Source of the DNA: an uncultured Solibacteraceae bacterium
Lineage (GTDB): Bacteria; Acidobacteriota; Terriglobia; 20CM-2-55-15
Assembly: GCA_964584785.1 (NCBI GenBank)
Contig: CAZPBY010000001.1
Location: forward strand, 74,718-138,717
Length of the DNA: 64,000 nt
Reading direction: 5' to 3'
Part shown: positions 9,302 to 55,846 of the stretch, one piece after another
Position numbering within the stretch: the first letter of the stretch is position 1
Layout of the letters: every line of letters begins with the position of its first letter
The notes under the pieces: model-generated
Databases searched by the model: none
Seen by the model: only the letters and a program-made list of their open reading frames with translations
What the model was told of the DNA's origin: nothing
Position numbers and translations under genes: made by a program

Positions 9302-12148
9302 TCAGCGCGATGGTTTCGGAACCCAATTCAGGATGACTGTAATCGGAGAACTCAGAGAATCGCCTACTGTTGAATTGAGCATGAAAGATTGACCGTCCGG
9401 TAAGACAACGTACTGCTGCCGAAAGACGTTGACCGCGGTGCTGCCGATATTCGTCAGGAAGAGCGGAACCGGAGTACCGGGTTCCAACTCTTCGCCGTTA
9501 CGCAGGGATTGGATCGGAACCGCCATCATTCGATCATCCGGAGCAATGTAGAACAATTCCTTACCGTTCGGGTTCCAGCGCACCTGAGTGCCCCCGTCTG
9601 CGGTGACTGGCGTATCCGATCCCGAACCTGGAAATCTCCGCAGGTAGATTTCATTGCGGCCGGTCTTGTCGGATTGATAGGCGATCCATTTCCCATCCGG
9701 AGAGAACTGCGCGAGCTGTTCGTTGAATTCAGTTTTAATGACCTCTCGCGGAGTTTTGTCGCCTTCCATCGGGAGAACCCAAAGGTCTATGCCAGTTTGC
9801 GAAGTCAGGATGCCGTATAGCAGGAATCGCCCATCGCGTGACCAGTCCATCGGAAACTTCGGCTCTGCCGTGGACAGGAGAGTACTCTCGCCTTCCCCAG
9901 TTGGGGCGCTGAGTAGTTTCGAGTGCAAGTTGATGGCCCCACCAGCGCCTTCGTCTTCGGCGAACACGATGCGTAAGCCGTCCGGAGACCAAAGCGGATA
10001 GAGGTCGTCTCGCGGACTGACGGTGATTCGATCCCAAAGATGGCGCACGCGGTCATAGGACCAGATATCCATGTTCTCATTGACGAGCCTGAAAACACCC
10101 ACGTGACGGCCGTCCATGGAAAGGCCCGGACCGAGGGCAGCCGAGTCGGGATAGGTGACACGTTCGAGTTCTTTGCCTGTTCGATCGACCCAGACGAGCT
10201 GCCGTAGATTGCTGTCCGGTGACGGCGTTCGATATGCGATGGGCCCTGCCTGCGACGCCGACAGATAAGTTCCTCCGTTGACACCCTGCGCAATTGGAAA
10301 TGGCTCTCCCGTGACCTCCAGGCGATCTGCATCGAACGCCTGCGCGAACAGTGTTTGCTGGCGAACGAACAAGAGATGTCCAGTGGCGCTATACACGGCG
10401 GCTGAATCCGCATCGAACAAGCGTTTGGCATCCGGCTTATCAAGCTGGCCAACATACACGCCGCGAGCTTCAGCATTTCCACCGACGAAAAAAACAAAAT
10501 GACGGCCATCCGGCAGGAACTGGGGAAAGACGTGAGACCGATGAGTGGATTCGAGCCGCGTTACCGGCATCGGCTCTCCGCCCGCCGCTGGAATTCTAAG
10601 CAGAGGAACGCCAGGAGTCTTCGAAAACAGGATCACGTCGTCCGTGTTCCAGGTAAGCCCTTGCGGCAAGCCCGCGACCTTGAGGATGGTCGTCGCCACT
10701 CCCTTGTCGAGGTCGAAACGCTTGAGCTTGGAATCCGCATTGAAGACAATCGACCGGCTATTGGGTGACCAGCTCGGCGCCCCACCTCCCGCCGTTCCCG
10801 GACGAGGACGGGCAGACGTGGAGTCCAACGAACTCAGCCACAAGTGCACCTGCCCCTCAAATGGGGCATTGAAGACAATACTTCGCCCATCCGGCGAAAG
10901 GGCAATAGAACGGCTGCGTGCCGGTGGCGTATTGATCTCGAGACGGACCTCCGCCGCGGCAGCACGAGGTCTCGAGGCCAAAACACCGAAGACAACGGCT
11001 GCAATCGTTACCAGAGCTAATACGGATACCCAGGCAATGCGTTCGCCACGGCGCGAATCCGATTTCGCGGTTTCAAAGCGGTCCGCTGTATTCACTCGCG
11101 AATCGGCGACCTCGAGCTGCACATCATGGAAGTCGCGCAGCCGCAATGCCTGGTCTTTCTGCAAACTGCGCCGCAGCAAACGGCGGATACTCTCCGGCGT
11201 CGAGGCAGGCAATCGGCTCCAATCCGGCTCGCTCTTTAAAATCACGGCAATTATTTCGCCCACCGTCTCACCTGGAAAGGCGCACTGTCCAGTGAGCATT
11301 TCATAGAGCACGCAGCCAAATGCCCACACGTCCGAACTGCGATCGGCCTCCTTTCCGCTCGCCTGTTCCGGTGACATGTATTGCGCGGTTCCCAAAATCA
11401 TTCCGGGTATGGTGGGAGCCATTGTCGGCGAATTTGAAAGCTCGGAAACCGTGCCACTCGCCGCACGCGTCTTCGCCAGGCCAAAGTCGAGGACTTTAAC
11501 GGTGCCCTTCTCCGTAACTTTGATGTTCGCGGGCTTCAGGTCGCGATGAATGATCCCTTGTTCGTGCGCCGCTTCGAGTGCCTGAGCAATCTGACGCGAA
11601 ATCGATAGCGCCTCCTCGAGTGGAATGGGTTGCCGCGCGATGCGTTCCGCCAGCGTCGGTCCTTCAATCAACTCGAGCACGAGTGCGTGGCGCCCCTCAC
11701 CCTGTTCCAGGCCATAGATCGCGCCAATGTTGGGATGACTCAACGAAGCGAGAACGTGCGCTTCGCTGGTAAAACGGGCGAGCCGGTCGGCGTCCAGAAT
11801 AAAGCTCTGCGGCATGACTTTGACGGCGACATCGCGCCGGAGCTTCAGATCATGCGCGCGATACACTTCCCCCATGCCGCCTCTACCAATTAAAGAGTGA
11901 ACCTGGTAATGCGCGATCGTCCGGCCGATCAGCTCCGATGAATCGTTTCCAACGAGATTGGCTGCGATATTGGATAAGTCCCTGTCGAGGACGTTGTCTG
12001 CGATTCGCTGAAGTAATAAAGACTCCACCTCACGCCGCAATTCCGCATCGGCACATGCTTGCGTCAGAAAAGAAGAACGTTCAGGCGCGGCCAGCTCAGC
12101 GGCCGCCTGATAGAGTTTTTCAACTTCTTTCCAGCGCTCCGGCGTCAT
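9302..12148 (-). CDS. Ser/Thr protein kinase with C-terminal TolB-like (PD40) beta-propeller
   Basis: Hanks kinase motifs (GRGGMGEVYRA, VAVK, HRDLKPANI, DFGLAK). A transmembrane segment. PD40-type repeats (FSPDGKWIAYQSD...). ATG chosen at 12148 (MTPERWKEVEKLY); the track ORF extends to 12340. Confidence 0.85.
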   Translation of the reverse strand: MTPERWKEVEKLYQAAAELAAPERSSFLTQACADAELRREVESLLLQRIADNVLDRDLSNIAANLVGNDSSELIGRTIAHYQVHSLIGRGGMGEVYRAHDLKLRRDVAVKVMPQSFILDADRLARFTSEAHVLASLSHPNIGAIYGLEQGEGRHALVLELIEGPTLAERIARQPIPLEEALSISRQIAQALEAAHEQGIIHRDLKPANIKVTEKGTVKVLDFGLAKTRAASGTVSELSNSPTMAPTIPGMILGTAQYMSPEQASGKEADRSSDVWAFGCVLYEMLTGQCAFPGETVGEIIAVILKSEPDWSRLPASTPESIRRLLRRSLQKDQALRLRDFHDVQLEVADSRVNTADRFETAKSDSRRGERIAWVSVLALVTIAAVVFGVLASRPRAAAAEVRLEINTPPARSRSIALSPDGRSIVFNAPFEGQVHLWLSSLDSTSARPRPGTAGGGAPSWSPNSRSIVFNADSKLKRFDLDKGVATTILKVAGLPQGLTWNTDDVILFSKTPGVPLLRIPAAGGEPMPVTRLESTHRSHVFPQFLPDGRHFVFFVGGNAEARGVYVGQLDKPDAKRLFDADSAAVYSATGHLLFVRQQTLFAQAFDADRLEVTGEPFPIAQGVNGGTYLSASQAGPIAYRTPSPDSNLRQLVWVDRTGKELERVTYPDSAALGPGLSMDGRHVGVFRLVNENMDIWSYDRVRHLWDRITVSPRDDLYPLWSPDGLRIVFAEDEGAGGAINLHSKLLSAPTGEGESTLLSTAEPKFPMDWSRDGRFLLYGILTSQTGIDLWVLPMEGDKTPREVIKTEFNEQLAQFSPDGKWIAYQSDKTGRNEIYLRRFPGSGSDTPVTADGGTQVRWNPNGKELFYIAPDDRMMAVPIQSLRNGEELEPGTPVPLFLTNIGSTAVNVFRQQYVVLPDGQSFMLNSTVGDSLSSPITVILNWVPKPSR

Positions 12149-17772: not shown

Positions 17773-20397
<2,625 letters not shown>

Positions 20398-20628: not shown

Positions 20629-23298
20629 TTATTTCTTCTGGGTAGCAGCGAGCCAGTTGACGACGACCGCGATGGGCGGAACGGCAGATGGTTCGGAGGC
20701 CGGCGGTTGCAGCACCAGGAATCTCTCACCATCCGGGGTGACATCATACTTGCCGTTGGTAAAATCCGAACCGGTGTTCCGCGTTTGAAACAGCGGCCTT
20801 GGAATGCCCGTTTCAATGGTGGTTCCGTTCGGCTTGACATCGACTGCCATCAACTTTCCATCTGGAGCGAGATAGAATATTTCCTTTCCATCCTTCCGCC
20901 AACGAGGTATTCCGCCTCCCGCATTTGATACCTGACGTCGGTCCGTCATGGACGGAAAGGCGGCGACCCATACTTGGGTCGAACCCGACTCATCGGAGTT
21001 GTAGGCTATCCAGCGGACGTCATACGACAGATTGAACTGCCTGCTTGTCGAAGGACCACCAACCAGCCGCACGGGTGTTGGATCACCGGTCAACGGGATA
21101 GCGGATACCGATTGATCTTCCGAACTTCGGTAAATGATGTAACGTCCATCCTTTGACCAGTCATCGATGGTTCCACTGTCCTTAAAGAGCGACGTCTCCT
21201 CACTTCCTCCTACATTCTTTCTATAAACGTGGTTGGAGCCTTTGCGGTTGGACGCGAATACAACTTCTTGTCCATTGGGTGACCAGACTGGATCAATGGA
21301 GCTGGAGGGTCCGAAGGTGAAGCGCGATAGGATGCCGGTCGATAGCTCTGCGAGCCAGAGCTCGTAACTGCCGATCCTCGGATCGAAACGGTCGAAAACC
21401 GCTCGCTTACCGTCGAGTGAAAGGTGGACATTATTGAAAAAATCGGGGTCGCCAATTGTTCCGAGCGGTCGCCCTGAGCGGTCGAACCAAGCCAATTGAG
21501 CGCCCCGAGCGTTTTCGGGGCCTCCATAAGCAAGAATGCCCGTACTCGACGTAGATACGCTGGCGAGCCAACCATTCTGGCCCACATCTTCTGCTACAAG
21601 AAACGCCTCTCCTCGAGTCTCCAGGTCGGCTAAGTCAAATGGCTGTGCCATCAAGGAATTTCCTCGCACCCACAGCAGATGACCGTCGCTATAGATTGTG
21701 CGAGTGTTCACATTCAGGACCCGCTTTCGGTCCCTCGAATCGAGAGAGCCAACGTAGATTCCACTTACTTCGGCCTCCGAGCTGACGACCCCATATAGAA
21801 AATGCCGGCCATCTGGTAGGAAAAAGGGGAATATGTGCCGAGCTTCATGTGAATTCAGCAATGTTACCGGTGCGCGATCTCCCCCTCTGGCGGAGAGGCT
21901 GTAGATACCCGTGTCCGAGCCGCCGCAGAGAAGGACGCCATCGCGATTCCACGTGCCGAACCCACACGGTGTGTTACTGACCAGTTCAGGAGGGCCGCCG
22001 CCAACCGCGATCTTCTTGAATTTTCCACCGGCGTTAAAACCAATAAACTTGCTGTCCGTCGACCAGGACGGCGCACCTCCGCCATCCGTGCCTTGCAAAA
22101 TTCGCGCGTCTAGTGAATCAATCCCACGAACCCATAGCTTCGATGTAGGTTCGTCTATTGCACTGAAAACAAGGTACCGGCCATCGGGAGACAGTGCAAA
22201 CTCCGGAACACCCGAACTCTGAAAGACCTTCTGAGGTGGTGGAGGAATCGTGAAACGAACAACGGTTGTGTTGCGAGTCGGCGGCGAACGCCAATACGCA
22301 ATCGCAACGCTGGCTGCGGCGACGACAAGCGCGATGCCAGCCACGAACCACGCCCAACGTTCACGAGTCTGTCGAGGCTGTTGGATAACACCCGCGGCAG
22401 CGTTCGACGCCTCTTCGATCTCGATTCGTGCGTCAGCAATGTCGTGAAGACGGCGGTTTGGATCCTTCTGAAGTGCGCGTCGCAGGAGCGTCCGAATCGA
22501 AAGTGGTGTTTCGGCGGGGAGCCTCGTCCAGTCAGGCTCTTCGGCGACGATCTGCGCAAGGACATCGGTTGTTGTCTCGCCGTCGAATGTGGGGCGTCCG
22601 CTTAACATCTCGTACAACACGCAGCCCCAGGCCCAGATGTCCGTGCGCTTATCGATGTCTTTGCCGCGCGCCTGCTCCGGCGACATGTAGCCTACGGTGC
22701 CGAGGATGAGGTTGTCTTCGGTCGAGACAACCGCCTTCGTCACCATGTCCGATGACGCAATCTTGGACTCGAAAATCTTTGCCAACCCGAAGTCGAGGAC
22801 CTTCACCGTGCCGTCTCGCGTGATCTTGATGTTGGCGGGTTTCAGATCGCGATGAACGACTCCCTTCGCGTGAGCCGCTTCCAGTGCCTCAGCTATCTGG
22901 CGAGCGATCGCCAACGCTTCTTCTACCGGCACACGGCCACGAGCAATACGCTCGGCGAGCGCGTCGCCATCGATGAACTCCAGGGCCAGACCACAGAGCC
23001 CATCGCTTTCTTCGAGACCGTAGATGGCTGCGATTCGCGGATGATTCAAGGAGGCAAGAAGCTGCGCTTCGCGATGAAATCGGGCGACCCGTTCGCGATC
23101 CTGAGCGAACGCTTCGGGCAGCACTTTGATCGCAACGTCACGATTCAGTTTCGAGTCGCGCGCCCGATAGACTTCAGCCATTCCACCGGCCCCGATGGAC
23201 GCGATGATTTCGTACGGTCCGAGCCGTGTTCCGGCAGCCAGCCGCCAGGACGACTGAATCCCACTGACCATTTGCTGCCGGTCTTCAGGCCGATCCAT
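20629..23298 (-). CDS. Ser/Thr protein kinase with TolB-like beta-propeller (paralogue 3)
   Basis: GAGGMAEVYRARD, HRDLKPANIKI, DFGLAK. A transmembrane segment. PD40 repeats. Alternative start at 23271. Confidence 0.85.
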   Translation of the reverse strand: MDRPEDRQQMVSGIQSSWRLAAGTRLGPYEIIASIGAGGMAEVYRARDSKLNRDVAIKVLPEAFAQDRERVARFHREAQLLASLNHPRIAAIYGLEESDGLCGLALEFIDGDALAERIARGRVPVEEALAIARQIAEALEAAHAKGVVHRDLKPANIKITRDGTVKVLDFGLAKIFESKIASSDMVTKAVVSTEDNLILGTVGYMSPEQARGKDIDKRTDIWAWGCVLYEMLSGRPTFDGETTTDVLAQIVAEEPDWTRLPAETPLSIRTLLRRALQKDPNRRLHDIADARIEIEEASNAAAGVIQQPRQTRERWAWFVAGIALVVAAASVAIAYWRSPPTRNTTVVRFTIPPPPQKVFQSSGVPEFALSPDGRYLVFSAIDEPTSKLWVRGIDSLDARILQGTDGGGAPSWSTDSKFIGFNAGGKFKKIAVGGGPPELVSNTPCGFGTWNRDGVLLCGGSDTGIYSLSARGGDRAPVTLLNSHEARHIFPFFLPDGRHFLYGVVSSEAEVSGIYVGSLDSRDRKRVLNVNTRTIYSDGHLLWVRGNSLMAQPFDLADLETRGEAFLVAEDVGQNGWLASVSTSSTGILAYGGPENARGAQLAWFDRSGRPLGTIGDPDFFNNVHLSLDGKRAVFDRFDPRIGSYELWLAELSTGILSRFTFGPSSSIDPVWSPNGQEVVFASNRKGSNHVYRKNVGGSEETSLFKDSGTIDDWSKDGRYIIYRSSEDQSVSAIPLTGDPTPVRLVGGPSTSRQFNLSYDVRWIAYNSDESGSTQVWVAAFPSMTDRRQVSNAGGGIPRWRKDGKEIFYLAPDGKLMAVDVKPNGTTIETGIPRPLFQTRNTGSDFTNGKYDVTPDGERFLVLQPPASEPSAVPPIAVVVNWLAATQKK

Positions 23299-40290: not shown

Positions 40291-40620
40291 ACCATCAGGA
40301 GGATATCCCGGCAAACGGGATGTAACAAACAAAACACTGGCGTCTGGAAATGGCCTTCAGTCTTCCCCGTCAATACGAACAGAAATGCAAAGCGACATCG
40401 GTTCAGAGCACCTGGCGGACAAAAGTGTCGCAGGCCGCCGGCACAGGTAGGGATAGTCGACAGATTTCGGGGCGCGCGGTAGAATTCGCCGTCCTGCATG
40501 TCCCGCGACGACAACGTGAGCGCCGGCTTCGATGCTGCTCATGATCTTCGGGCGAGCTTTAGAGGCGTCGCCGCGCGTTGCGGAACCGGCGCACCAACGG
40601 TTGGGAGGATTTGAGTTCCC

Positions 40621-40710
40621 GATGAGCGGAGCGAATGCAAGCCCGACAGGGCGCAGCTATTAAACGATGAGCGGAGCGAATGCAAGCCCGACAGGGCGCA
40701 GCTATTAAAT
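40621..40710 (+). repeat. two tandem copies of a 45-nt element carrying a 13-codon ORF ([13 protein letters not shown]), abutting the MFS start codon
   Basis: GATGAGCGGAGCGAATGCAAGCCCGACAGGGCGCAGCTATTAAAC, then the same ending ...AAAT. Each copy contains ATG...TAA. The second TAA is 3 nt before the MFS ATG (40712). A third copy lies at 50635. Confidence 0.7.
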
Positions 40711-40711
40711 A

Positions 40712-42154
40712 ATGTCACGGATTGCTGCAAGATTGGAGAGGCTGCCATTCTCGGTGTTTCATCGCCGCCTGCTGCTGATGGGCGGTCTTGGTTACTGCTT
40801 TGACGCCATGGACGCCGCGGTCATCGCCTTCGTGTTACCGGCGTTAATGACTCAGTGGTCGTTGACGAGCGTGCAAGCAGGCGTTCTCTCGAGCGCCACC
40901 TTCATCGGGTACTTCTTTGGGGCATTGGGGGCAGGCACGGCCGGCGATCTGATCGGCCGGCGCAGGATCATGATGTGGGCTCTGGTGATCTACTGCGTGG
41001 CCTCCTTCATCAGTGCCTTCGTTACATCGGCCACTCCGTTTTTCTGGCTGCGCGTCCTTGCGGGCGTCGGCACAGGCGCGGAAAGCGTCATCGTCGCTCC
41101 GTTTCTTTCGGAGTTCGTGCCGAAAACCTACCGCGGTCGATTCATTGGCGCCTTGGCGGGTTTCTTTTCATTCGGATTTTTCGGTGCCGCCGTCCTCGGC
41201 TACGCGCTGGTGCCGGCCACACTGTGGGGATGGCGGCTTGCGATCGTCATTACCGCACTCCCGATCCTGTTGCTCCTGTGGTGGCGAAGGGCGTTGCCGG
41301 AGTCGCCGCGCTGGCTCGAGAGCCGCGGCCGAATATCCGCGGCCGAAGCCGTTATGACGCGCATCGAAGAGGAAATTCTCCAGACACGCCGGCAACCGCT
41401 GACGCAGCCGGAACCCGTGCCGGCTTTCGATTTCAATCAGCAAGGCGGGTCGCAGGGCGGATCGGTCTGGACCAATATCGCAACCCTCGTTTCTCCTCCG
41501 CTGACGCGTATCGCCGTAATGACGTGGGCGCTGTGGCTGTCGATCACGTTTTCCTATTACAGCTTCTTTACCTGGATACCGACTCTGCTGGTTCAAAGCG
41601 GCATGACCATGACGCGCAGTTTCGCCTATTCGATCTCGATTTATGCCGCGATGATTCCCGGCTACTACTCTGCAGCTTTTTTCAACGACCGCATCGGCCG
41701 TCGGGCGATCATTGTGTCGTACCTGCTCCTGGGTGGTGTGGCGGCGATAGGGCTTGCCATGGCCCACTCCAACCCGCAGATTATTCTTGCCGGCGTGTGT
41801 TTATCTTTCTTTATGAACGGGGTCTACGCAGGCGTGTATGCCTACACTGCCGAGGTCTTTCCGACGCGGATCCGAACGACGGGAGTCGGTCTGGCGTCAG
41901 CGGTGGGCCGACTGGGCGCCATCAGTGCTCCGATTCTCGTCGGAGCGATCTTCCCCAGATTCGGTTTCGCAGGTGTGTTCGGTGTGACGACATTCGTTTT
42001 GATCGCCGGAGCGGTGGTGGTTTTTGTGTTCGGGATACGCACGGAGGGGCGTTCCCTGGAGGCCATTGCTGCCGGGGCACAACTGACACGGAAGAGGAAT
42101 TCGAAATTGAACGAGTCCTGCATCTCAAATCCGAAATCCGAAATTTCAAAATGA
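40712..42154 (+). CDS. MFS transporter (metabolite:H+ symporter type)
   Basis: 480 aa with 12 predicted TM segments. MFS motifs (GDLIGRRRIM, ...FNDRIGRR). Confidence 0.85.
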   Translation: MSRIAARLERLPFSVFHRRLLLMGGLGYCFDAMDAAVIAFVLPALMTQWSLTSVQAGVLSSATFIGYFFGALGAGTAGDLIGRRRIMMWALVIYCVASFISAFVTSATPFFWLRVLAGVGTGAESVIVAPFLSEFVPKTYRGRFIGALAGFFSFGFFGAAVLGYALVPATLWGWRLAIVITALPILLLLWWRRALPESPRWLESRGRISAAEAVMTRIEEEILQTRRQPLTQPEPVPAFDFNQQGGSQGGSVWTNIATLVSPPLTRIAVMTWALWLSITFSYYSFFTWIPTLLVQSGMTMTRSFAYSISIYAAMIPGYYSAAFFNDRIGRRAIIVSYLLLGGVAAIGLAMAHSNPQIILAGVCLSFFMNGVYAGVYAYTAEVFPTRIRTTGVGLASAVGRLGAISAPILVGAIFPRFGFAGVFGVTTFVLIAGAVVVFVFGIRTEGRSLEAIAAGAQLTRKRNSKLNESCISNPKSEISK

Positions 42155-42238
42155 ACCTCGACACCCCGCGTCCCGGCGTTCAATTTTGAGATTTCGGTTT
42201 TCGGATTTGAGATGCAGGACGGGTGCAATTTCAAAATT
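42097..42238. repeat. ~140-bp foldback (two ~60-bp imperfect inverted arms) spanning the MFS stop codon
   Basis: Left arm gaattcgaaattgaacgagtcctgcatctcaaatccgaaatccgaaatttcaaaatgaac. The reverse complement of the right arm matches it at ~88%. A ~21-nt spacer separates the arms. The MFS stop (42152..42154) and its last ~19 codons lie in the left arm. Confidence 0.5.
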
Positions 42239-42280: not shown

Positions 42281-43525
42281 ATGCAGCAGGAAAGCTACCT
42301 GTTTCGAAACCTGATGCTCCTCGACCCGCGCTTCGAGGAATCCCGCGGCGGGTACGAAGTGCTGGTCGAGGATGGTCATTTCAAGGAAGTCTCAGACCGG
42401 CCGGTTTCTTCGAAGACAGCGCGAGTCATCGATTGCGGCGGACGAACACTGATGCCGGGCCTCATCGACTGCCACGTGCATGTCTACTTGAGCGAGGTCA
42501 ATCTCTCGATGCTGGAGCACTTGTCGGTATCGCTGCTCGCGGCGCGTGCGGCACCGGTTTTGGCAGGGATGCTCAATCGGGGGTTTACAACGGTTCGCGA
42601 TACCGGCGGCGCCGATTGGGGAATCCGGGAAGCCGTCGAAAAAGGGTACTTCGCAGGGCCGCGAATGTTCATCTGCGGGCGCGCCATCGGTCCGACGGGC
42701 GGCCATTCCGACATGCGCCGACGAACCGACCAACGCCACGACGGCTGCCGGTGTTGCGATGGCCTGAAGTTTACGATGGCCACGGCCGACGGTGCGGATC
42801 AGGTGCGCGCGACAGTTCGCGAGGAACTGCGGCAGGGCGCGGATGCCATCAAGATCATGGTCTCCGGCGGTGTGGCCTCGCCTTACGATCCGCTCGATTC
42901 GCGTCAATTCTCACTGCCGGAAATTGCCGCGGCCGTCGAAGAGGCCACCGCATTCAAACGGTATGTTCTCGCGCACGCGTACACGGCGGAGGCCATCACC
43001 CGGGCCGTCAGTCAGGGCGTCCGAACGATCGAGCATGGCAACTTGATCGATGCGACCTCCGCTCAGTTGCTCGCCGAACGCAAGGGCTACATGGTCGCCA
43101 ACCTTGTGGCCTACGTCGTCATGAAGGAGCGCGCCGCACAGCTCGGCATGAGCGCTGAAAAGCTCGAAAAGAACGACCTGGTTATCAAAGGCGGATTCGA
43201 ATCTCTCGAGATCTGCAGGCGGGCAGGCGTGAAGGTGGCGTATGGCAGCGACCTGCTCGGGCAATTACAGGATGAGCAATCGCGCGAATTCGTGCTGCGC
43301 CGTGAGGTCGTGAGTCCCATCGAGATCATCCGCTCGGCGACATCGATCGGTGCCGAGGTGGTACGGATGCAGGGCAAGCTCGGCATCATCGACCCCGGTG
43401 CGATTGCGGATCTGCTCATCGTGGACGGCGATCCGCTGAAGAACTTGAGCCTGCTCCAGGACCAGGGCCAGCACCTCTCGCTCATCATGAAAGACGGGCG
43501 CCTTCATAAAAATCGGCTAACGTGA
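42281..43525 (+). CDS. metal-dependent amidohydrolase family protein
   Basis: LMPGLIDCHVHVY metal-binding HxH motif. Later metal ligands (H, H, D). 414 aa. Confidence 0.8.
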   Translation: MQQESYLFRNLMLLDPRFEESRGGYEVLVEDGHFKEVSDRPVSSKTARVIDCGGRTLMPGLIDCHVHVYLSEVNLSMLEHLSVSLLAARAAPVLAGMLNRGFTTVRDTGGADWGIREAVEKGYFAGPRMFICGRAIGPTGGHSDMRRRTDQRHDGCRCCDGLKFTMATADGADQVRATVREELRQGADAIKIMVSGGVASPYDPLDSRQFSLPEIAAAVEEATAFKRYVLAHAYTAEAITRAVSQGVRTIEHGNLIDATSAQLLAERKGYMVANLVAYVVMKERAAQLGMSAEKLEKNDLVIKGGFESLEICRRAGVKVAYGSDLLGQLQDEQSREFVLRREVVSPIEIIRSATSIGAEVVRMQGKLGIIDPGAIADLLIVDGDPLKNLSLLQDQGQHLSLIMKDGRLHKNRLT

Positions 43526-46737: not shown

Positions 46738-49455
46738 ATGAATTCAGCCGGCGCCAGGAAGAGCGTGCCTGCTCTCCTCCTTGTCCTCGGATTGCTTACA
46801 CTGTCGGTCGCGGCTGCGCAAGCTCTAGACACGCTGACTTTGGATACTCCCGATTTCACGCTGAAGCTTCTGGCATCGTCTCAAACCATGGCCTCGCTTC
46901 AACCTAAAGGGGCAGGTAGTTTTGATTTCGCTCCGGCGGATCGACTCGAGAGCCGTGCCGGCGACGGATTCAACGCAATTGGTGACATAACCCTGCGCAT
47001 ACGCAAAGGCACATCTGGATCCTGGGAAAACTATTCAACGAGCGCAGCGCGGCATCCGGTTCGTGCAATGAGTGGGCCCGGTTTCCTTGCCGTCGCTGAT
47101 CTTTCGCCGACTCTGGCGCCGGACTGTCCAATCCAGGTCACGCGACGCTGGTTGCTGGACGATGGCCGCCTTGTCCTCCGTTTCGAATTGAAGAACACGT
47201 CTTCAGACACCGTGCAAGTCGGCGCCCTCGGTCTGCCGATGGTCTTCAACAATATGCTGAAGGGCCGTCCGCTGACGGAAATGGTTGAGGTCAATTCCTT
47301 CTCGGACCCTGCGATCAATCAGGATGGCGGTTATCTTCAGGTCACGCGGCTGAACGGTCATGGTCCGGCGCTTGTTGTCGTACCGGCCGACGGCAAGACA
47401 CCCTTCGAAGCATGGCGATTACTTAATGAACCTAACGGGCCAAACAACCTCTTCAGCCGGGGCAATCCATACGAAGGCGCGTTCGAGTGGATGGTTCACT
47501 CCGCGGCTTATGCGGAAAACGAGTGGAAGGGCAAAGAGCAGTGGAGTCCACCGACGATGGCTTCACTGGAGCCGGGCCAAAGCCGAAGTTACAGTGTGAA
47601 GTTCCTCGTCTCACCCGACATCCGCAACATTGAAAAAACGCTGATCGCCAACAAACGGCCTGTGGCCGTCGGAATCCCGGGCTATATCCTCCCGATGGAT
47701 TTGAACGCGAAGTTGTTTTTGAACTATCCATCCAGAGTCACCTCCATCAAAAGTGAACCAGCCGGTGCGATTGTTGTTCAGGAGAACAAACCCACACAAG
47801 GTGGCTGGAAAGATTACACGCTGCAAGGCAAAACCTGGGGACGTGTGCGCCTCTCCATAAGCTATGCGGACCGCACGACTCAGGCCTTGAGTTATTACGT
47901 CATCAAGCCCGCGTCCCAACCGGTGGCCGACCTGGGAAACTTCCTGTTCACAAAACAGTGGTACGTCAATCCTGACGATCCTTTCCATCGCAGTCCGTCC
48001 GTGATGACATACGATCGTGCCAACAACCGCCTCGTCCTGCAGGACGCGCGCGCCTGGATTGCCGGCCTCGGCGATGAAGGAGGCGCCGGTTCATGGCTGG
48101 CCGCGGCGATGAAGGAATTTGGCCAGCCGCGCAAAGACGAGATTGCGAAGTTCGAACAGTTCGTGGATGGAGTTCTGTGGGGACAACTGCAGTACAGCGA
48201 AGGTCCGCGCCAATACGGCGTGAAAAAGAGTTTGTTCTATTACGATCCCGCCGCGCTTCCCTCCTTTCCTTATGAAGAACGGTTCAATTGGACGACATGG
48301 ACCAGCTGGAACAAACCCGCCGCAGAGTCCGTGAATCGCGCTTATGACTATCCACACGTTGTAGCGGCGTATTGGGCCATGTACCGGATTGCGCGAAACT
48401 ACGACGGTCTGGTGACGCACCATGCATGGGATTGGTATCTGAATCAGGCCTTCCAGACCGCCAACTATCTCGGCACTCATGCCAACATCGGCAACAGTCG
48501 CGACGGTCTCATGGACGGCACTATTTTTCTGATGTTGCTGGATGATCTGAAACGCGAGGGCTGGAAGAGTCAGTCCGAGACGCTCGAGGGCCAACTGAAA
48601 ACGCGCGCCGAAGACTGGAACAAGCGTGCTTTACCATACGGCAGCGAAATGGCGTGGGATTCCACAGGTCAGGAGCAGATTTACGGAATCACCAAATACT
48701 TCGGCAATGACGAAAAGGCGCGAATCACTCTGGACTCCGTGTTGGGTTACATGCCGTCCATTCCGCATTGGGGCTACAACGGCAGCGCCCGCCGTTTTTG
48801 GGACTTCTTTTACGGCGCGGCGCCAGGAGGTACCGCCGAACGGCAGTTGCATCATTACGGCTCCGGACTCAACGCGATTCCGGTGCTTTCCGCATTCCGC
48901 GGCGATCCCGATGATTTCCACCTGCTGCGCACCGGCTACGCCGGCGCTATGGGCGGATTAAGCAACATCGATCAGGAAGGCTTCGCCGGCACTGCGTTTC
49001 ACTCCTTTCCGCAGAACATGCGGTGGGATACCTACTCCGGCGATTATGGTCCGAACTTTTTCGGCGTTGCCGTGAATGCGGGAACTTACATTATCAATCA
49101 TCCGGAATTCGGCTGGCAGGCCTTTGGCGGGAACACGAAGACCGATAGCGACTGGATTCGAGTTCAACCGCTCGATGCGTTTCGGCAACGCGTTTATGTC
49201 GGACCGCTGGGATTGTGGCTCACCCTCGATTCCGGGACGTTCGACAACATCGAAATCAACAGCAGGACGCACGCCGTGCGCGCCGGTCTTGCCGCCGCTA
49301 CACCATCCACGAAGTCCGCGCGGCTGCGCATTGAACAGCCCGCGAAAATTCCAGGAGTCGGCGTTTACCATCCCAAAGGAAACTTCGAGAAGGAACGGGA
49401 CGCATTTACGATCGCGCTTCAGAACGGAATTTCATGGATCGAGTTGGTTCCGTGA
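46738..49455 (+). CDS. large secreted protein of unknown function (possible glycoside-hydrolase accessory/enzyme)
   Basis: Signal peptide, 905 aa. GGAGG SD. It starts 4 nt after the GH127 stop. No recognisable catalytic motif. Confidence 0.55.
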   Translation: MNSAGARKSVPALLLVLGLLTLSVAAAQALDTLTLDTPDFTLKLLASSQTMASLQPKGAGSFDFAPADRLESRAGDGFNAIGDITLRIRKGTSGSWENYSTSAARHPVRAMSGPGFLAVADLSPTLAPDCPIQVTRRWLLDDGRLVLRFELKNTSSDTVQVGALGLPMVFNNMLKGRPLTEMVEVNSFSDPAINQDGGYLQVTRLNGHGPALVVVPADGKTPFEAWRLLNEPNGPNNLFSRGNPYEGAFEWMVHSAAYAENEWKGKEQWSPPTMASLEPGQSRSYSVKFLVSPDIRNIEKTLIANKRPVAVGIPGYILPMDLNAKLFLNYPSRVTSIKSEPAGAIVVQENKPTQGGWKDYTLQGKTWGRVRLSISYADRTTQALSYYVIKPASQPVADLGNFLFTKQWYVNPDDPFHRSPSVMTYDRANNRLVLQDARAWIAGLGDEGGAGSWLAAAMKEFGQPRKDEIAKFEQFVDGVLWGQLQYSEGPRQYGVKKSLFYYDPAALPSFPYEERFNWTTWTSWNKPAAESVNRAYDYPHVVAAYWAMYRIARNYDGLVTHHAWDWYLNQAFQTANYLGTHANIGNSRDGLMDGTIFLMLLDDLKREGWKSQSETLEGQLKTRAEDWNKRALPYGSEMAWDSTGQEQIYGITKYFGNDEKARITLDSVLGYMPSIPHWGYNGSARRFWDFFYGAAPGGTAERQLHHYGSGLNAIPVLSAFRGDPDDFHLLRTGYAGAMGGLSNIDQEGFAGTAFHSFPQNMRWDTYSGDYGPNFFGVAVNAGTYIINHPEFGWQAFGGNTKTDSDWIRVQPLDAFRQRVYVGPLGLWLTLDSGTFDNIEINSRTHAVRAGLAAATPSTKSARLRIEQPAKIPGVGVYHPKGNFEKERDAFTIALQNGISWIELVP

Positions 49456-49475
49456 GGATGTCACGATCGAGCTGT

Positions 49476-49570
49476 GTTTCGTCACGAAGCCCGTCGCTGC
49501 GCTCCGGGTTCTGCACAATGTGCCAAACCTGACAGAACCCGGAGCGCAGCGACGGGCTTCGTGACGAAAC
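49476..49570. repeat. perfect 38-bp inverted repeat (95-bp hairpin element) between the secreted-protein gene and galT
   Basis: GTTTCGTCACGAAGCCCGTCGCTGCGCTCCGGGTTCTG, a 19-nt loop, then the exact reverse complement. There is no U-tract after it. Confidence 0.8.
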
Positions 49571-49598
49571 GCAAAGTCCGCTCCCGTGGATAACGCGA

Positions 49599-50675
49599 AT
49601 GAATGATCCAAACAAGTGGGAAGAACGATGGCATCCGCTGCGGGAGGAATGGGTCATCATCGCGGCGCACCGTCAGGACAGGCCGTGGCATGGCGAAACG
49701 AAAGGTGCGACGTCCGCTAATGCCTCTACGCCGGAGTACCACGAGCGATGCTATTTCTGTCCCGGTAACCGGCGAGTCGGCGGCGCCCGTAACGAAAACT
49801 ACAGCGGCATATTTGTTTTCGATAACGATCATCCCTGCGTTGGACCAAACGCGCCAGATGTGCTTGATCCTGCGACCGGCATCTACCGCAATCGGCCGGC
49901 ACAAGGCCTGGCCCGCGTCATCTGCTACAGCCCGAAACATAACCTCACGCTCGCCGAGATGGAGATTCCTGAAATCGAAAACCTTATGAAAGCCTGGCGA
50001 GATCAGTACGTCGAACTAGGCGACAGGCCGCAAGTCCGCCACGTTTTGGTGTTCGAGAATAAGGGCGAGGTCGTCGGCGTTTCGAACCCGCATCCACACT
50101 GTCAGATCTACGCGACCAATTTTGTGTTCAAGTTCATCGAGACCGAGGCGGAGGTTTCACGCAAGTATTACGAAGACAAAGGCCGGAGCCTGTTCGAAGA
50201 CATCATCAAAACCGAACGTGACGATGGACGCCGCGTCATTTATGAAAACTCTTCGGCGATCGCATTCATGCCGTACTTCGCGAGGTACGCTTACGAATCC
50301 TATGTTGCGCCCCGGGCGATGCATCCGGATCTGGCGAGTCTCAACAAAGACGAAATAAAGGACCTCGCCGAGGCTTTGAAAATCATGCTGGTGCGTTATG
50401 ACAACTTATGGCGGATGCCGTTTCCGTACGTGATGACGCTGCACCACGCTCCGCTGGATGGCGCGAATCACGACGGCTTTCATTTCCACATCGAGTTCCA
50501 TCCTCCACTGCGCAAACCGAATCTGCTGAAATATCTCGCCGGCCCGGAGATCGGCGGCGGTAACTTTCTCAGTGACACATTGCCGGAAGAAAAGGCGCAA
50601 GAGCTGAGGAACTTACCTGACGTTCACTACAAACATGAGCGGAGCGAATGCAAGCCCGATAGGGCGCAGCCTTAA
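49599..50675 (+). CDS. galT: galactose-1-phosphate uridylyltransferase (HIT superfamily)
   Basis: Zn site CYFCPGN. Active-site HPHCQ. Overall GalT colinearity. The C-terminal 13 residues and the stop come from the 45-nt repeat copy. Confidence 0.85.
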
Positions 50676-50679
50676 GTAA
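50635..50679 (+). repeat. third copy of the 45-nt element/13-14-codon ORF ([14 protein letters not shown]) at the galT/IMPase junction
   Basis: ATGAGCGGAGCGAATGCAAGCCCGATAGGGCGCAGC is near-identical to 40621..40710. It overlaps the galT 3' end in another frame. Its TAA (50677..50679) is 1 nt before the downstream ATG at 50681. Confidence 0.6.
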
Positions 50680-50680
50680 G

Positions 50681-51685
50681 ATGAACCCGCGTAGCCTCCT
50701 TCAGCCGCTGAAAACCATTCACGACCGCATTCGGGACGCTGTTCAGGCAGCGACTGAAAATCAGCAACCCGGCGAACTCGCCCGCGTCCGGAGAGACGAT
50801 GCCGGCGACACGATCTACGGAATCGACGTCGTCAGCGAAGAGACGCTGCTGGACCTTTTTGAAGAGTTGAGTCAACGCGAGTCGTTTGTGTTGGTCGCTG
50901 AAGGACTGCGTGACGGCCAGATTGTTTTTCCTCGCGGCGCCGACGAAGCGAAAGTGACCTGGCGGATCATCGTGGATCCGATCGACGGAACACGCGGGAT
51001 CATGTATCAGAAGCGCAGCGCGTGGGTGCTGACGGGTCTCGCTCCGAATCGTGGACCTGAGACGTCGCTGCAGGATGTTGTGCTCGCGATTCAAACGGAA
51101 ATTCCCCTCATCAAACAACACCTTTCGGATCAGCTGTGGGCAATTCGTGGCCAGGGAGCCGAGGCGCTGCGCTACAACCGGCTCACCGGAACATACTCCA
51201 CATTCGTGCCTCGGCCGTCACAAGCGAGCACGATCGCGCATGGTTTCGCGATGATTTCGAGATTCGTTCCCGGCGTGCGTGACGAATTGGCCGCAATCGA
51301 TGAAGAGATCGTGATCGCCGCGCTGGGGCCGGTCGAACCAGGAAAGGCGCACTGCTTCGAGGATCAGTACATTTCCAATGGCGGCCAGCTTTACGAATTG
51401 ATGGCCGGCCACGACCGGTTTGTCGCCGACTTGCGGCCGTTGCTGGAACCCATTGCCGCACGACGCGGAATGCGGCTTGGCCTTTGCTGTCATCCTTATG
51501 ATCTCTGCACTGCGTTGATCGCAACGGAACTGGGTGTGATGATCACCGACGTCCGCGGCGGAGTCCTGGACGCGCCCATGAATGTTTCTGCAAATGTCGC
51601 GTGGGCCGGATATGCGAATGAGCAGATCCGGCGCCAGATCGAGCCCCTGCTGCAATCGGCTTTGCGTAAACGCGGGTTGTTGTGA
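50681..51685 (+). CDS. inositol-monophosphatase/FBPase superfamily protein
   Basis: IVDPIDGT metal-binding motif and a WVLTGLA-type second motif. 334 aa. Confidence 0.6.
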
Positions 51686-53104: not shown

Positions 53105-55846
53105 CTAGTGGAGAAGCGCCGGCCAGTTCACGATCACGTTTAACTGAGGGGAATCCTGGAGAGTCGCGCTTACTAAAAAGGGGCGGCGGGCATCGGCCGT
53201 TACCTCATAAAAGTTACTGCCGCTGGGCAGCAAAAACAACTCGTGAGGGGACGAAGTCGTGATGGAGCGACCTTCCAGCTTGATGTCGACGCTCTGCAAC
53301 TTTTTTTCGGGTGAGATGTAAAACAACTTGTGCCCGTCGGCGCTCCAGGCTGGGACGGTTCCTCCGCGTGCGGAAATCTGGAACTTCCGCTCCGCATCCG
53401 GAAAAGAACGAACATAGATTTCATACCGCCCCGATTCGTCGGACTCATATGCAACCCAGCGGGGACTCGGCTCCGGGGAGAATCGCGCGTTGAGTTCATT
53501 AAACCGCGTGCGGAGGTACGGTCTGGGTTGCGCGTCCTCGGGTGAACTTCCCGTGGACGCCACGGGCAGGATCCAAAGATCGCGATTGGTTTGCGTATCG
53601 CTGCTGAAGTAGATGATTTGACGGCCGTCGCCCGACCAGTCCGTCGCATGAGCAAATTGGTGGGTCATCTGACGTTCGCTGCCGTTTCCTGTTACGTCTT
53701 TGAGGAACAGGTAAGGGGGCCGTGTGAACACCATCTGCCGGCCATCGGGCGACCACAACGGATCAAAATTAATGCCCGGGCCGAATGTAAATCTCGTCGA
53801 TACATCCCGATCGATATCGACGATCCACAAATCGTAGTCCGGACCGCTCGTGTTGCGCGCTAAAACAATACGGCGGCCATCGGGCGACAAAGCGAAGTTC
53901 CTGACCAATCCCGGTTCTCCGACTGTGCCAATGGGCCTGCCCGATGAATCCACCCATGTCAACTGGCGATGATTGCCGGAAGAGCGATAAAGAAGAACGC
54001 CACTGCCCGACGCGTCCGCCTCTATTCGATATGAGTATCCGCTGTCAACCGGATCTGCGATGGCCGTAAGTTCGCCCGTCAGTTTGAGGGAGGTTGCATC
54101 AAACTCCTGTGCCACAAGGGTCCCATTGCGCCGCCATAGAAGGTACGTATTCCCACGCACTCCTTTCGCAAAAACTGCATTCGAATCCGTAATCAAAATC
54201 CGAATGGCCTCGTCGGGTTTTGTCAACGATGCAACGTATATGCCCGTGTCGCTGGAATTCTCGCTGACGCTGAAATACAAGAAGTGACCACCGGACAAGA
54301 ACTGCGGCCACATATGAAATCTTTCGCGACGTGCGGCGTTGAGCGCCGTGAACTGCACCGGTTCGCCGCCCGACGCAGGCACTCGGAACAACGTTTGTGC
54401 GGCGACCGAAAAAATAATTTGTCCGTCCTCACTCCAGGCGCCGCCTCGTGTTCCGAGCGCCATTTTGCAGATTATGGCCGGTGCCCCACCTGCAAGATCG
54501 ATGCGTTGCAGCTTTCCTGCGGCAAAGAATGCAAGAGACTTGCTGTCGGGAGACCCCAAAGGTTGCTGTGCTCCTTCCGTATCAGGAATCAATCTGGCCT
54601 CGGCGGCATCCAGAGGCCGGATCCACAGTCCCGTCTTCTCCTTCACCGTGGCAACAAACGCGATGGTTGTTCCGTCTGGCGATACGGCAAAACTAGCCTG
54701 AAAAAACTGGCCCCCCTCGGGGGGCACAATCTGCAAACGGAATGCGCGTTGTCCATTCGAGGTGTTGCCGCGGAAGCGAAACATCGACCAGCCGACAGCT
54801 ACAACGCCGAGCAACAACGCCACAGCGATTATCCATCGCCACGCGGAACGCGAAGTTGTGGCCAGCTGCTTTGGCGTTTGCGCCGCCCATTCCAATTCCG
54901 CCTTAACATCCGCCGCGTTCTGCCAGCGATCGTCCGGTTCAAGAGCCAAACATCTTTCCATGATGTGAGCGCACTTCTCATCAAACACGCGGATGGTGCT
55001 TTGACCTTGTACATAGAAATGTCCGGCCGCCATCTCGAACAGGATGAGGCCCAACGCGAAGATGTCGGTCCGCGCATCCGTCTCGCGGCCGGCGGTCTGC
55101 TCGGGCGCCATGTATTGCGGCGTCCCCATCACGGCTCCACGCTGCGTTATTGTCGCGTCGCCTTTGAATTTTGCCAAACCGAAGTCCAGAACTTTCACTC
55201 CGGATTTCGTGACCATGATGTTGCCGGGTTTCAGGTCGCGATGAGTAATCCCGCGACTGTGTGCGACGGCGAGAGCGTCCGCAATCTGTGCCCCATATCG
55301 CAGTACTTGCGGTATTGCGAGAGCGCCACTCTTCAGCCGGACCGACAACGATTCTCCTTCGACGAGTTCCATCACCAGATAATCCAGGCCGTCAATCTGC
55401 AGCACGTCGTGGAGAACGCAGATGTGTGGGTGATTCAACGCCGCGAGAGCCTGAGCTTCGCGCTCGAAGCGCTGCTTCATTGCGACATCGGTGGAGAATT
55501 GCGGCGGTAGTGCTTTGATGGCAACGGTACGGCCCAGCCGGGAGTCGCGGGCGCGAAAGACCTGGCCCATGCCGCCCTGGCCCAACAGTTGTTCGATGAC
55601 ATAAGGTCCGATGCGAGCACCGATCGTGAGCAGGCTTTTCGTTTCATTCACTTCATTGTTCATAGCACCAACGGCCCGAATGAAGTCGCCGGTTTTGTTG
55701 TCCTGCTCGAGCAACCCTTCCACTTCGCGCCGCAGCTCGGTATCCGTACCGCACTGTTCATTGAGGAATTGCCGACGCGCCTCCGGTCCGAGTTCGTTTG
55801 CAGCGTGATACAACGACTCCACTTTTTTCGACGATTCACGTTTCAT
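53105..55846 (-). CDS. Ser/Thr protein kinase with TolB-like beta-propeller (paralogue 4)
   Basis: GQGGMGQVFRARD, HRDLKPGNIMV, DFGLAK. A transmembrane segment. PD40 repeats. ATG at 55846. Confidence 0.85.
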   Translation of the reverse strand: MKRESSKKVESLYHAANELGPEARRQFLNEQCGTDTELRREVEGLLEQDNKTGDFIRAVGAMNNEVNETKSLLTIGARIGPYVIEQLLGQGGMGQVFRARDSRLGRTVAIKALPPQFSTDVAMKQRFEREAQALAALNHPHICVLHDVLQIDGLDYLVMELVEGESLSVRLKSGALAIPQVLRYGAQIADALAVAHSRGITHRDLKPGNIMVTKSGVKVLDFGLAKFKGDATITQRGAVMGTPQYMAPEQTAGRETDARTDIFALGLILFEMAAGHFYVQGQSTIRVFDEKCAHIMERCLALEPDDRWQNAADVKAELEWAAQTPKQLATTSRSAWRWIIAVALLLGVVAVGWSMFRFRGNTSNGQRAFRLQIVPPEGGQFFQASFAVSPDGTTIAFVATVKEKTGLWIRPLDAAEARLIPDTEGAQQPLGSPDSKSLAFFAAGKLQRIDLAGGAPAIICKMALGTRGGAWSEDGQIIFSVAAQTLFRVPASGGEPVQFTALNAARRERFHMWPQFLSGGHFLYFSVSENSSDTGIYVASLTKPDEAIRILITDSNAVFAKGVRGNTYLLWRRNGTLVAQEFDATSLKLTGELTAIADPVDSGYSYRIEADASGSGVLLYRSSGNHRQLTWVDSSGRPIGTVGEPGLVRNFALSPDGRRIVLARNTSGPDYDLWIVDIDRDVSTRFTFGPGINFDPLWSPDGRQMVFTRPPYLFLKDVTGNGSERQMTHQFAHATDWSGDGRQIIYFSSDTQTNRDLWILPVASTGSSPEDAQPRPYLRTRFNELNARFSPEPSPRWVAYESDESGRYEIYVRSFPDAERKFQISARGGTVPAWSADGHKLFYISPEKKLQSVDIKLEGRSITTSSPHELFLLPSGSNFYEVTADARRPFLVSATLQDSPQLNVIVNWPALLH

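Follow-up and report, generated by a model that had tools for sequence, protein, structure and literature searches.

A short dispersed repeat of Bryobacterales-type Acidobacteria, resembling mycobacterial interspersed repetitive units, at the galT 3' end and at other gene starts

Introduction

The spread of MIRUs (mycobacterial interspersed repetitive units), reportedly the subject of Supply et al. in 1997, and their placement at start codons have been a question since that year, with nearly all of the work done in one genus and on about 40 loci. MIRUs consist of 40-100 bp units at 40-50 loci, show tetranucleotide direct repeats at the filled sites, and have open reading frame (ORF) ends that overlap the adjacent genes (PMC3184786). 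According to PMC12548453, they "insert themselves at start codons", the coupling being of the -4 type. Here, a repeat unit of similar architecture was analyzed in a 64,000-nt stretch of DNA from an uncultured Solibacteraceae bacterium (contig CAZPBY010000001.1, positions 74,718 to 138,717; hereafter the window), in which one copy occupies the junction between galT, encoding galactose-1-phosphate uridylyltransferase, and an inositol monophosphatase (IMPase)-family gene. An earlier note on this DNA had described that copy as the third of a 45-nt element.

The results make it probable that the copy at the galT junction belongs to a MIRU-like repeat family of Bryobacterales type, non-coding and 44-48 nt long, whose dispersed units can amplify in tandem, and that this copy would have inserted into the 3' end of galT and allowed translation to be handed over to the IMPase gene.

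Results

Repeat unit at the galT-IMPase junction

The galT gene (49599..50675, forward strand; Pfam and homologues) encodes 358 amino acids, compared with 345-353 in its relatives, and is followed by the IMPase-family gene (50681..51685, forward strand), the N-terminus of which lines up with where this gene begins in relatives. Besides these two genes, Pfam identified a GHMP or galactokinase-like gene among the flanking genes. The presence of a third copy of the element at 50635 was borne out by string, repeat and profile searches, whereas the family boundaries gave it a length of 46 nt (50635..50680, forward strand) instead of the 45 nt previously assigned. The unit is placed exactly before the IMPase ATG at 50681 and comprises an 11-nt head, ATGAGCGGAGC, a core, GAATGCAAGCCCGATAGGGCGC, and a tail, AGCCTTAAGTAAG. 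Its 36-nt string ATGAGCGGAGCGAATGCAAGCCCGATAGGGCGCAGC (50635-50670) occurs again at 40622-40657 and 40667-40702 with one mismatch, a C/T difference in the hairpin loop. No match to this string was obtained in dinucleotide-preserving shuffles of the window, that is, three real copies against 0 expected. A repeat finder returned a 45-nt family with the same three copies, and a profile search of the window detected exactly these three and no further copy.

The other two copies form a tandem array of 45-nt units (40622..40666 and 40667..40711, both forward strand), the second being an exact duplicate of the first, and the end of copy 2 directly adjoins the ATG at 40712 of a major facilitator superfamily (MFS) sugar-transporter gene (40712..42154, forward strand; Pfam). 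All three units contain an in-frame TAA, located 3, 3 and 1 nt before the next ATG for copies 1, 2 and 3, respectively. A Shine-Dalgarno (SD)-like GGGAGGA (40603..40609, forward strand), recognized from the sequence and the family pattern, lies 13 nt upstream of the ATG of the first unit; prior to insertion, it would have been the ribosome-binding site of the MFS start codon. A promoter-like site was found at 40457-40485, upstream of the array. Exact-protein look-ups for strain variants of the MFS and IMPase proteins of the window showed that neither is on record.

At the galT junction, the unit is read in two frames. In the galT frame it supplies the codons CAT GAG CGG AGC GAA TGC AAG CCC GAT AGG GCG CAG CCT TAA, with the stop at 50673-50675, so that codons 346-358 and the TAA (50634..50675, forward strand) derive from the repeat except for the first C. 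In its own frame, a small ORF of 14 codons begins at the ATG at 50635 (50635..50679, forward strand) and ends with the TAA at 50677-50679. The two stops, both held by the tail CTTAAGTAAG, are located 5 and 1 nt before the ATG at 50681, respectively, and both readings agree with those given in the earlier note. According to Pfam, the C-terminal domain of GalT extends no further than residue 346 of 358, which leaves the repeat-encoded tail outside the fold.

GalT relatives and the reconstructed empty site

Orthologous galT ends were compared using the 120 best GalT homologues, all from Acidobacteria or Terriglobia and none above 82% identity, and 78 further galT loci examined as DNA. The 13-residue tail was present in none of the 120 homologues and in none of the 78 loci, and is thus absent from about 200 relatives; the condition named in the earlier note as refuting an insertion was therefore not encountered. 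In both sets, conservation extends up to ...HYK and gives way to a short variable tail, of 1-9 residues in the 120 homologues, and the galT stop mostly overlaps the start codon of the following gene. In the closest relatives, the next gene begins 1, 4 or 14 nt before the galT end. A 4-nt ATGA or GTGA overlap was the commonest arrangement among the 78 DNA loci, in which overlaps of 8 nt and of 13-20 nt were also observed.

The in silico removal of 50635-50680 left AAA CAT GAA CCC GCG TAG, and the reconstructed empty allele reads AAAC-ATGAACCCGCGTAG. The resulting GalT has 349 amino acids, ends with HYKHEPA and a stop, and overlaps the IMPase ATG by 14 nt. The relative P0005, with the tail HDRA and a stop, shows the same phase and the same 14-nt overlap. 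Among about 200 relatives, the galT junction is occupied by a unit in two, the window and L119; the latter (76% identical) has the other head type and a 4-unit array, and its galT TGA overlaps the ATG of the first unit. The tail-less relatives, the overlap restored upon removal and the dispersed, start-codon-abutting family support the C-terminal remodelling by insertion that had been proposed for this gene. The sequence comparison thus supports an insertion at the IMPase start codon, by which GalT gained 13 repeat-encoded residues in place of about 4.

If the 13 residues were instead native to galT, the copies at 40.6 kb would be merely similar or derived, or else the junction would be an assembly chimera. 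The tails of a few relatives do hold ERS or SGGNA-like strings. This explanation is already refuted, with a vanishingly small probability left to it, because no compared relative has the tail and because many genomes carry the unit, at more than 100 loci unrelated to one another. In addition, the independent metagenome contig L113 (JACXTT010451487.1) carries the identical galT junction, which is therefore not an assembly artefact. The likeness of the tails LSGGNA, QAGGNV and HTGRK to the own-frame peptide of the unit was taken as coincidence: these tails are read in another frame and belong to a separate native Q-x-G-G family, and their contigs show a direct stop/start overlap with no space for a unit.

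A different palindromic insert was observed at the start of the IMPase-family gene in L117 (about 2537-2600) and also in L138, L125, L136, L153, L130 and L127, an example being ATGACGAAATTGGGGAATGATGGGCCATC-AAGA-GATGGCCCATCATTCCCCAATTT, read as MTKLGNDGPSRDGPSFPNF; in L117 and the loci most similar to it, the insert keeps the reading frame. Since it comes after an ATGA overlap with galT, the galT junction also hosts other small ATGA-preserving elements.

Census and consensus of the repeat family

An exact-pattern scan of public genomes with 21 specified core bases, using one genome per species, detected at least 112 loci. The census figures given here and below apply to the matches listed, are biased by the exact 21-nt core, and rest on gene starts and ends that were called heuristically. 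Nearly all loci came from metagenome-assembled genomes (MAGs) of Bryobacterales, Solibacteraceae, Ca. Sulfopaludibacter or 'Terriglobia', and a single MAG contributed at least 17 of them. The consensus was ATGAGCGG-(CT|A|AT)GC-GAATGCAAGCCCGAYAGGGCGC-AGCCATCAA-RAR. Its 5' boundary is sharp, since the base before the ATG is variable and ATGAGCGG is near-invariant even though the search pattern did not force it, while at the 3' end conservation decays after CATCAA. The core string was found in no paper of the searched literature, nor did any paper there join Acidobacteria with such a repeat; within these limits, the family appears to be undescribed. The sole listed match without the family head and tail, L027 in a MAG labelled as a proteobacterium, looks like a chance or fragmentary one.

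Units are 44-48 nt in length or period and form arrays of 1-9. A 1-nt head indel separates the two main subfamilies, whose units measure 45 nt when the head has 11 nt and 47 nt when it has 12. In a further subfamily of ~81 nt, the loop encloses a diverged second core (...CGCGAAGCGTGAGCGCGATAGCGCGAAAC...); this form was present in L119 (2535-2790), L035, L009, L080, L108, L026, L056, L058 and L077, sometimes mixed with short units in one array. Copy number varies at the orthologous DUF1552 gene, with 1 unit in L087, 2 in L001, and 3 in L108, which contains a nested copy in addition.

Position of the units relative to genes

The 3' end of the unit abuts an ATG in 46 of the 122 arrays. A gene start lies within about 80 nt in 43 more, and 26 of these 43 spacers contain an SD-like motif, often directly abutted by the unit; altogether, a co-oriented gene starts no more than 80 nt downstream in 89 of 122. 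In about 40 arrays, a distance of exactly 12-13 nt separates the core from the start of the first co-oriented long ORF downstream. Starts within 16 nt were counted for 43 of 109 on the downstream side, compared with 12 of 109 on the opposite side and 90 of 545 at random positions, and neither control showed a start peak comparable to that of the downstream side. The 3' end of the unit abuts start codons far more often than expected by chance.

An SD-like motif precedes the ATG of the unit itself in 18 of the 46 ATG-abutting arrays but in only 2 of the 38 SD-abutting ones. Therefore, in the ATG-abutting class the ATG of the unit would have replaced the start codon of the gene, as exemplified by the MFS locus. 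A co-oriented upstream gene, supported by its GC content at third codon positions (GC3), ends at the unit in 66 of 120 arrays, that is, about half are operon-internal. The most frequent upstream end is a TGA inside the ATGA of the unit (18 cases), and in 8 cases the upstream frame continues into the unit, like that of galT. No relationship links the downstream genes, among which are groEL, rplT, carB, dnaX, secD, tgt, purE and a pilin gene.

Among 97 units followed by an ATG, the unit ORF reads through in frame in 27, forms an ATGA overlap in 16, and stops within 5 nt in about 35. With lengths of 45 and 47 nt, the unit ORF either shares the frame of the next ATG or falls into the one that gives an ATGA overlap. 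These endings, the ATG at the start of every unit and the SD-like motif before the first ATG in the 18 arrays mentioned above are what a functional micropeptide or leader peptide, MSGANASP(T/I)GRS..., regulating the downstream gene would produce. However, the head indel shifts the frame, so that the two main subfamilies read the same DNA either as MSGANASP... or as an unrelated peptide, the second frame being the one used by galT, and the ORF ends vary among stop, read-through and frameshift. The sequence comparison thus indicates that the unit peptide is not conserved and that conservation acts at the nucleotide level, which leaves the micropeptide highly improbable and close to refuted.

Hairpin and search for RNA signals

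Folding and the family alignment identified a conserved hairpin in the unit (50649..50668, forward strand), in which TGC (50649-51) pairs with GCA (50666-68) and GCCC (50654-57) with GGGC (50662-65), leaving a GATA loop and an AA bulge. Variants of the inner stem occurred in 8 of 141 distinct units, of which 3 were compensated and 1 was a wobble, so that the units are too uniform to give a covariation signal, in part owing to ascertainment; compensatory stem variants elsewhere in the family were GCGC/GCGC and GGCC/GGCC.

These features raise the question of a host cis-regulatory RNA module 5' of ribosome-binding sites (RBSs), in which a hairpin with an invariant bulge would be bound by a protein or small RNA or act as a bicistronic design or insulator, setting or co-regulating the translation initiation of hundreds of genes, and which selection for that function would have spread. 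Such a module would account for the strict orientation and precise seat on ATG or SD, for the near-invariance of paired and unpaired bases outside the part forced by the search, for the few compensatory stem changes, and for the position of units within transcribed 5' untranslated regions and operon junctions, including the array downstream of the promoter-like site at the MFS gene; units are also tolerated before essential genes. On the other hand, the fold is no more stable than that of shuffles on either strand (z about -0.9), and no Rfam match was obtained. Rfam 15 gave no match in the window at gathering thresholds, and permissive scans of both unit types yielded only noise at E>0.7. A structured RNA or riboswitch was rejected on these two grounds.

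Within the unit, neither a sigma-70-like promoter nor a terminator-like site was found. A hammerhead-like reading of (C)UGAUGAG...CGAA was discarded because the base or bases before the ATG are not conserved. Judged by eye, GCGGCUGC is presumably complementary to the 16S 530-loop over 8 nt, a length at which chance matches are expected.

Spread and nesting of the units

Among groES-groEL junctions, the unit was present in one and absent from another. Copies were also nested in other units, in GTAG-type hairpin loops and in two other palindromic repeats, the hosts being a GTAG-type element resembling repetitive extragenic palindromic (REP) sequences, CTGTAGGCGCGGTC...CCGCGCACAG, an element CCCTCCGGGAG...CCGGATGAGGG, and a ~150-nt GGGGTGG palindrome whose empty forms were seen in L049, L051 and L071. 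The nested-unit loci were L002, L017, L025, L030, L043, L047 and L048 (one Terriglobia MAG and relatives), L019, L031, L032, L098 and L111, and L066. In degenerate IS91-family transposase genes, the unit is located at an internal Met codon (CPSCGGRRM followed by ADTAAHLVDRVF), namely at L020 3360-3406, L063 511-557 and L069 about 630-675. Two of the contigs with these insertions were binned as Verrucomicrobia or Chthoniobacterales, which may reflect horizontal movement of the insertion sequence or mis-binning. A link to IS91 through the tail CAAG was examined and abandoned, since the tetranucleotide varies (CAAT, TAAG, TAAT) and the IS91-family genes are disrupted hosts and not drivers.

An ATGA is found on both sides of the array in 31 of the 46 start-abutting cases and at the galT junction, with the 5' ATGA present in all copies. 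In L022, L101, L054 and L013, the downstream genes share 7-20 nt of the 5' end of the unit past the ATG, with purE starting ATGAGCGGAGCGAAGCC, as might result from the fusion of truncated units to the gene starts or from microhomology during insertion.

Sporadic occupancy, copy-number change, nesting and the copy at an internal Met codon are signs of selfish spread rather than of a conserved regulon. From these signs we infer that ATG(A) is the destination of the element and that copies are retained by selection where they land on start codons or in dispensable genes. The signs also weigh on the regulatory RNA module: occupancy of orthologous junctions is sporadic (2 of about 200 for galT, and groES-groEL with or without a unit), the downstream genes share no functional theme, and arrays of up to 9 units, nesting and a disrupted transposase gene are typical of selfish elements. 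Taken with the fold results, these observations make the regulatory module unlikely.

Other repeats in the window

A 101-nt near-perfect palindrome (49473-49573; 41-nt arms, 98% complementary) fills the spacer between a DUF5695 gene, which ends at 49455, and galT at 49599. In relatives, this gap is 25 nt or an overlap, which suggests that the palindrome was inserted separately, as another kind of element in this operon. On the otherwise identical contig L113, it is only 94% identical.

A 136-nt palindromic element (42100-42235; 53-nt arms, 89% complementary) begins in the last 55 nt of the MFS gene, whose stop ends at 42154, and extends toward an amidohydrolase gene at 42281. Related copies in L097 and L094 mark it as another dispersed repeat family.

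Four diverged paralogous segments with 60-85% identity (10872-11881, 19325-20346, 22166-23187 and 53725-55576), returned by the repeat finder, are unrelated to the repeat. Judging by the HRDLKPxN motif, they look like Ser/Thr-protein-kinase genes.

Discussion

The closest known analogue of the present family appears to be the mycobacterial MIRU, with membership resting on architecture and not on descent. Five architectural features of MIRUs were tested and found: size and dispersal, arrays, junction position, co-orientation, and start-codon insertion with the corresponding ORF ends. Like MIRUs, the units fall within or near 40-100 bp and occur singly or in variable-copy tandem arrays at many loci; they lie at gene junctions of operons, are co-oriented with the genes, and enter start codons without silencing, the latter being a MIRU trait. 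Their ORF ends overlap or abut flanking stop and start codons, including the -4 ATGA arrangement; ATGA-type tetranucleotides stand on both sides of most start-abutting arrays, the 5' one being part of every copy; size classes exist (here about 46 and about 81 nt); and both are without a known mobilising enzyme. The differences are that MIRUs belong to Actinobacteria, whereas the present family belongs to Acidobacteria, lies at the short end of the size range, and has a single hairpin. Furthermore, a large fraction of its units abuts a Shine-Dalgarno sequence instead of an ATG, copies are often nested in other repeats, and the copy number per genome is seemingly higher, with at least 17 loci in one MAG among the matches listed.

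Other described repeats share fewer of these properties. Neisseria REP2 and the Borrelia inverted repeat (IR) are likewise small repeats directly upstream of genes in a fixed orientation, and carry initiation signals including an ATG, but they are reported to have a promoter and RBS of their own (PMC3184786), whereas the present unit shows no sigma-70-like promoter, usually lacks an SD of its own, and is frequently operon-internal. REP sequences and their REPIN derivatives, associated with the RAYT transposase (Y1 HUH type), are similarly short (21-65 nt), GC-rich, hairpin-forming, extragenic and high in copy number, with nested or clustered copies. However, a 5' GTAG and a dominant palindrome characterize REPs, which are found in either orientation, frequently paired as inverted copies, and lie mostly at gene 3' ends, whereas the present unit is strictly co-oriented with the downstream gene at 5' ends, and is a guest in GTAG-type loops in one genome. 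In the unit, no GTAG was found, the hairpin is of 4+3 bp, all copies are co-oriented, and no recurrent transposase-like ORF lies nearby. As for miniature inverted-repeat transposable elements, the ends ATGAGC... and ...CAAGAA are not inverted repeats and no general target-site duplication was found; one subfamily has a subterminal 6-bp pair, GGCTGC/GCAGCC. Rickettsia palindromic elements (RPEs) also add residues without destroying the protein, as does the unit in the GalT tail and in in-frame N-terminal extensions elsewhere in the family, but RPEs are 100-150 bp palindromes inside ORFs that are not tied to start codons. In the synthetic bicistronic design (PMC12548453), a short ORF ends at or beside the real start codon and delivers ribosomes to it, as the unit may do; that design is engineered, however, and has its SD within the leader ORF.

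The unit starts with its own ATG(A) and has a short GC hairpin followed by an A-rich tail; it is co-oriented with the downstream gene, with its 3' end on a start codon or SD. In the proposed explanation, it landed at galT on the IMPase ATG lying 14 nt inside the galT 3' end. As the comparison with the relatives shows, the last four galT codons (reconstructed as HEPA and a stop) were cut off and replaced with 13 repeat residues and the repeat stop. The ATG of the unit at 50635 would have taken the former position of the IMPase start inside the galT 3' end. Ribosomes ending galT or the unit ORF could then reinitiate at 50681 by termination-reinitiation. Since both frames stop 5 and 1 nt before 50681, ribosomes would be handed on and the insertion would be nearly neutral to the operon. 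The unit peptide itself would have no function, and the conserved sequence with its hairpin is most likely the recognition site of a predicted copying agent.

Several observations weigh against this explanation. The empty galT site is a reconstruction and was not seen in a sister strain, the closest relatives being 78-82% identical. About a third of the arrays abut or lie just upstream of an SD and not an ATG, although selection on very short intergenic spacers can explain this placement, short of proof. The neat hand-over is not universal, as in about 19 of 97 cases the unit ORF enters the gene in a different frame, and the hand-over to the IMPase gene itself is a geometric argument that fits the stop positions. 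When the 2,119 ORFs of 112 loci were clustered all against all, nothing but ordinary paralogue families and no mobilising gene emerged, and a search for unit halves split by an insert, as in an autonomous version, gave only the ~81-nt nested subfamily. No clear target-site duplication was found; the 5' ATGA is present in every copy, even in those without a following ATG. Finally, the near-invariant unpaired bases would also fit a binding site for a host factor.

A bolder possibility, which we regard as doubtful, is that the unit is an active start-codon-homing element with a novel mode of ATG(A)/RBS targeting through its head and hairpin, or a module for 'natural bicistronic' initiation that the host has domesticated genome-wide, ahead of hundreds of genes such as groEL, rplT and carB. 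If either were true, the family would be the first tractable high-copy comparative system for the movement and role of MIRU-type repeats.

In summary, the repeat at the galT junction probably represents a second, unrelated family of MIRU architecture in another phylum, with several subfamilies and a far larger number of copies, and with MAGs that often differ in the presence or copy number of units. This comparative power could be used to define the target site, to search for the enzyme by phyletic profiling, and to test translational coupling as the reason for tolerance. In the annotations of Acidobacteria, the units give rise to spurious small ORFs and to proteins with N-terminal extensions or altered C-termini, as in GalT with 358 versus about 349 amino acids, and they could act as strain markers in the manner of variable-number tandem repeats.

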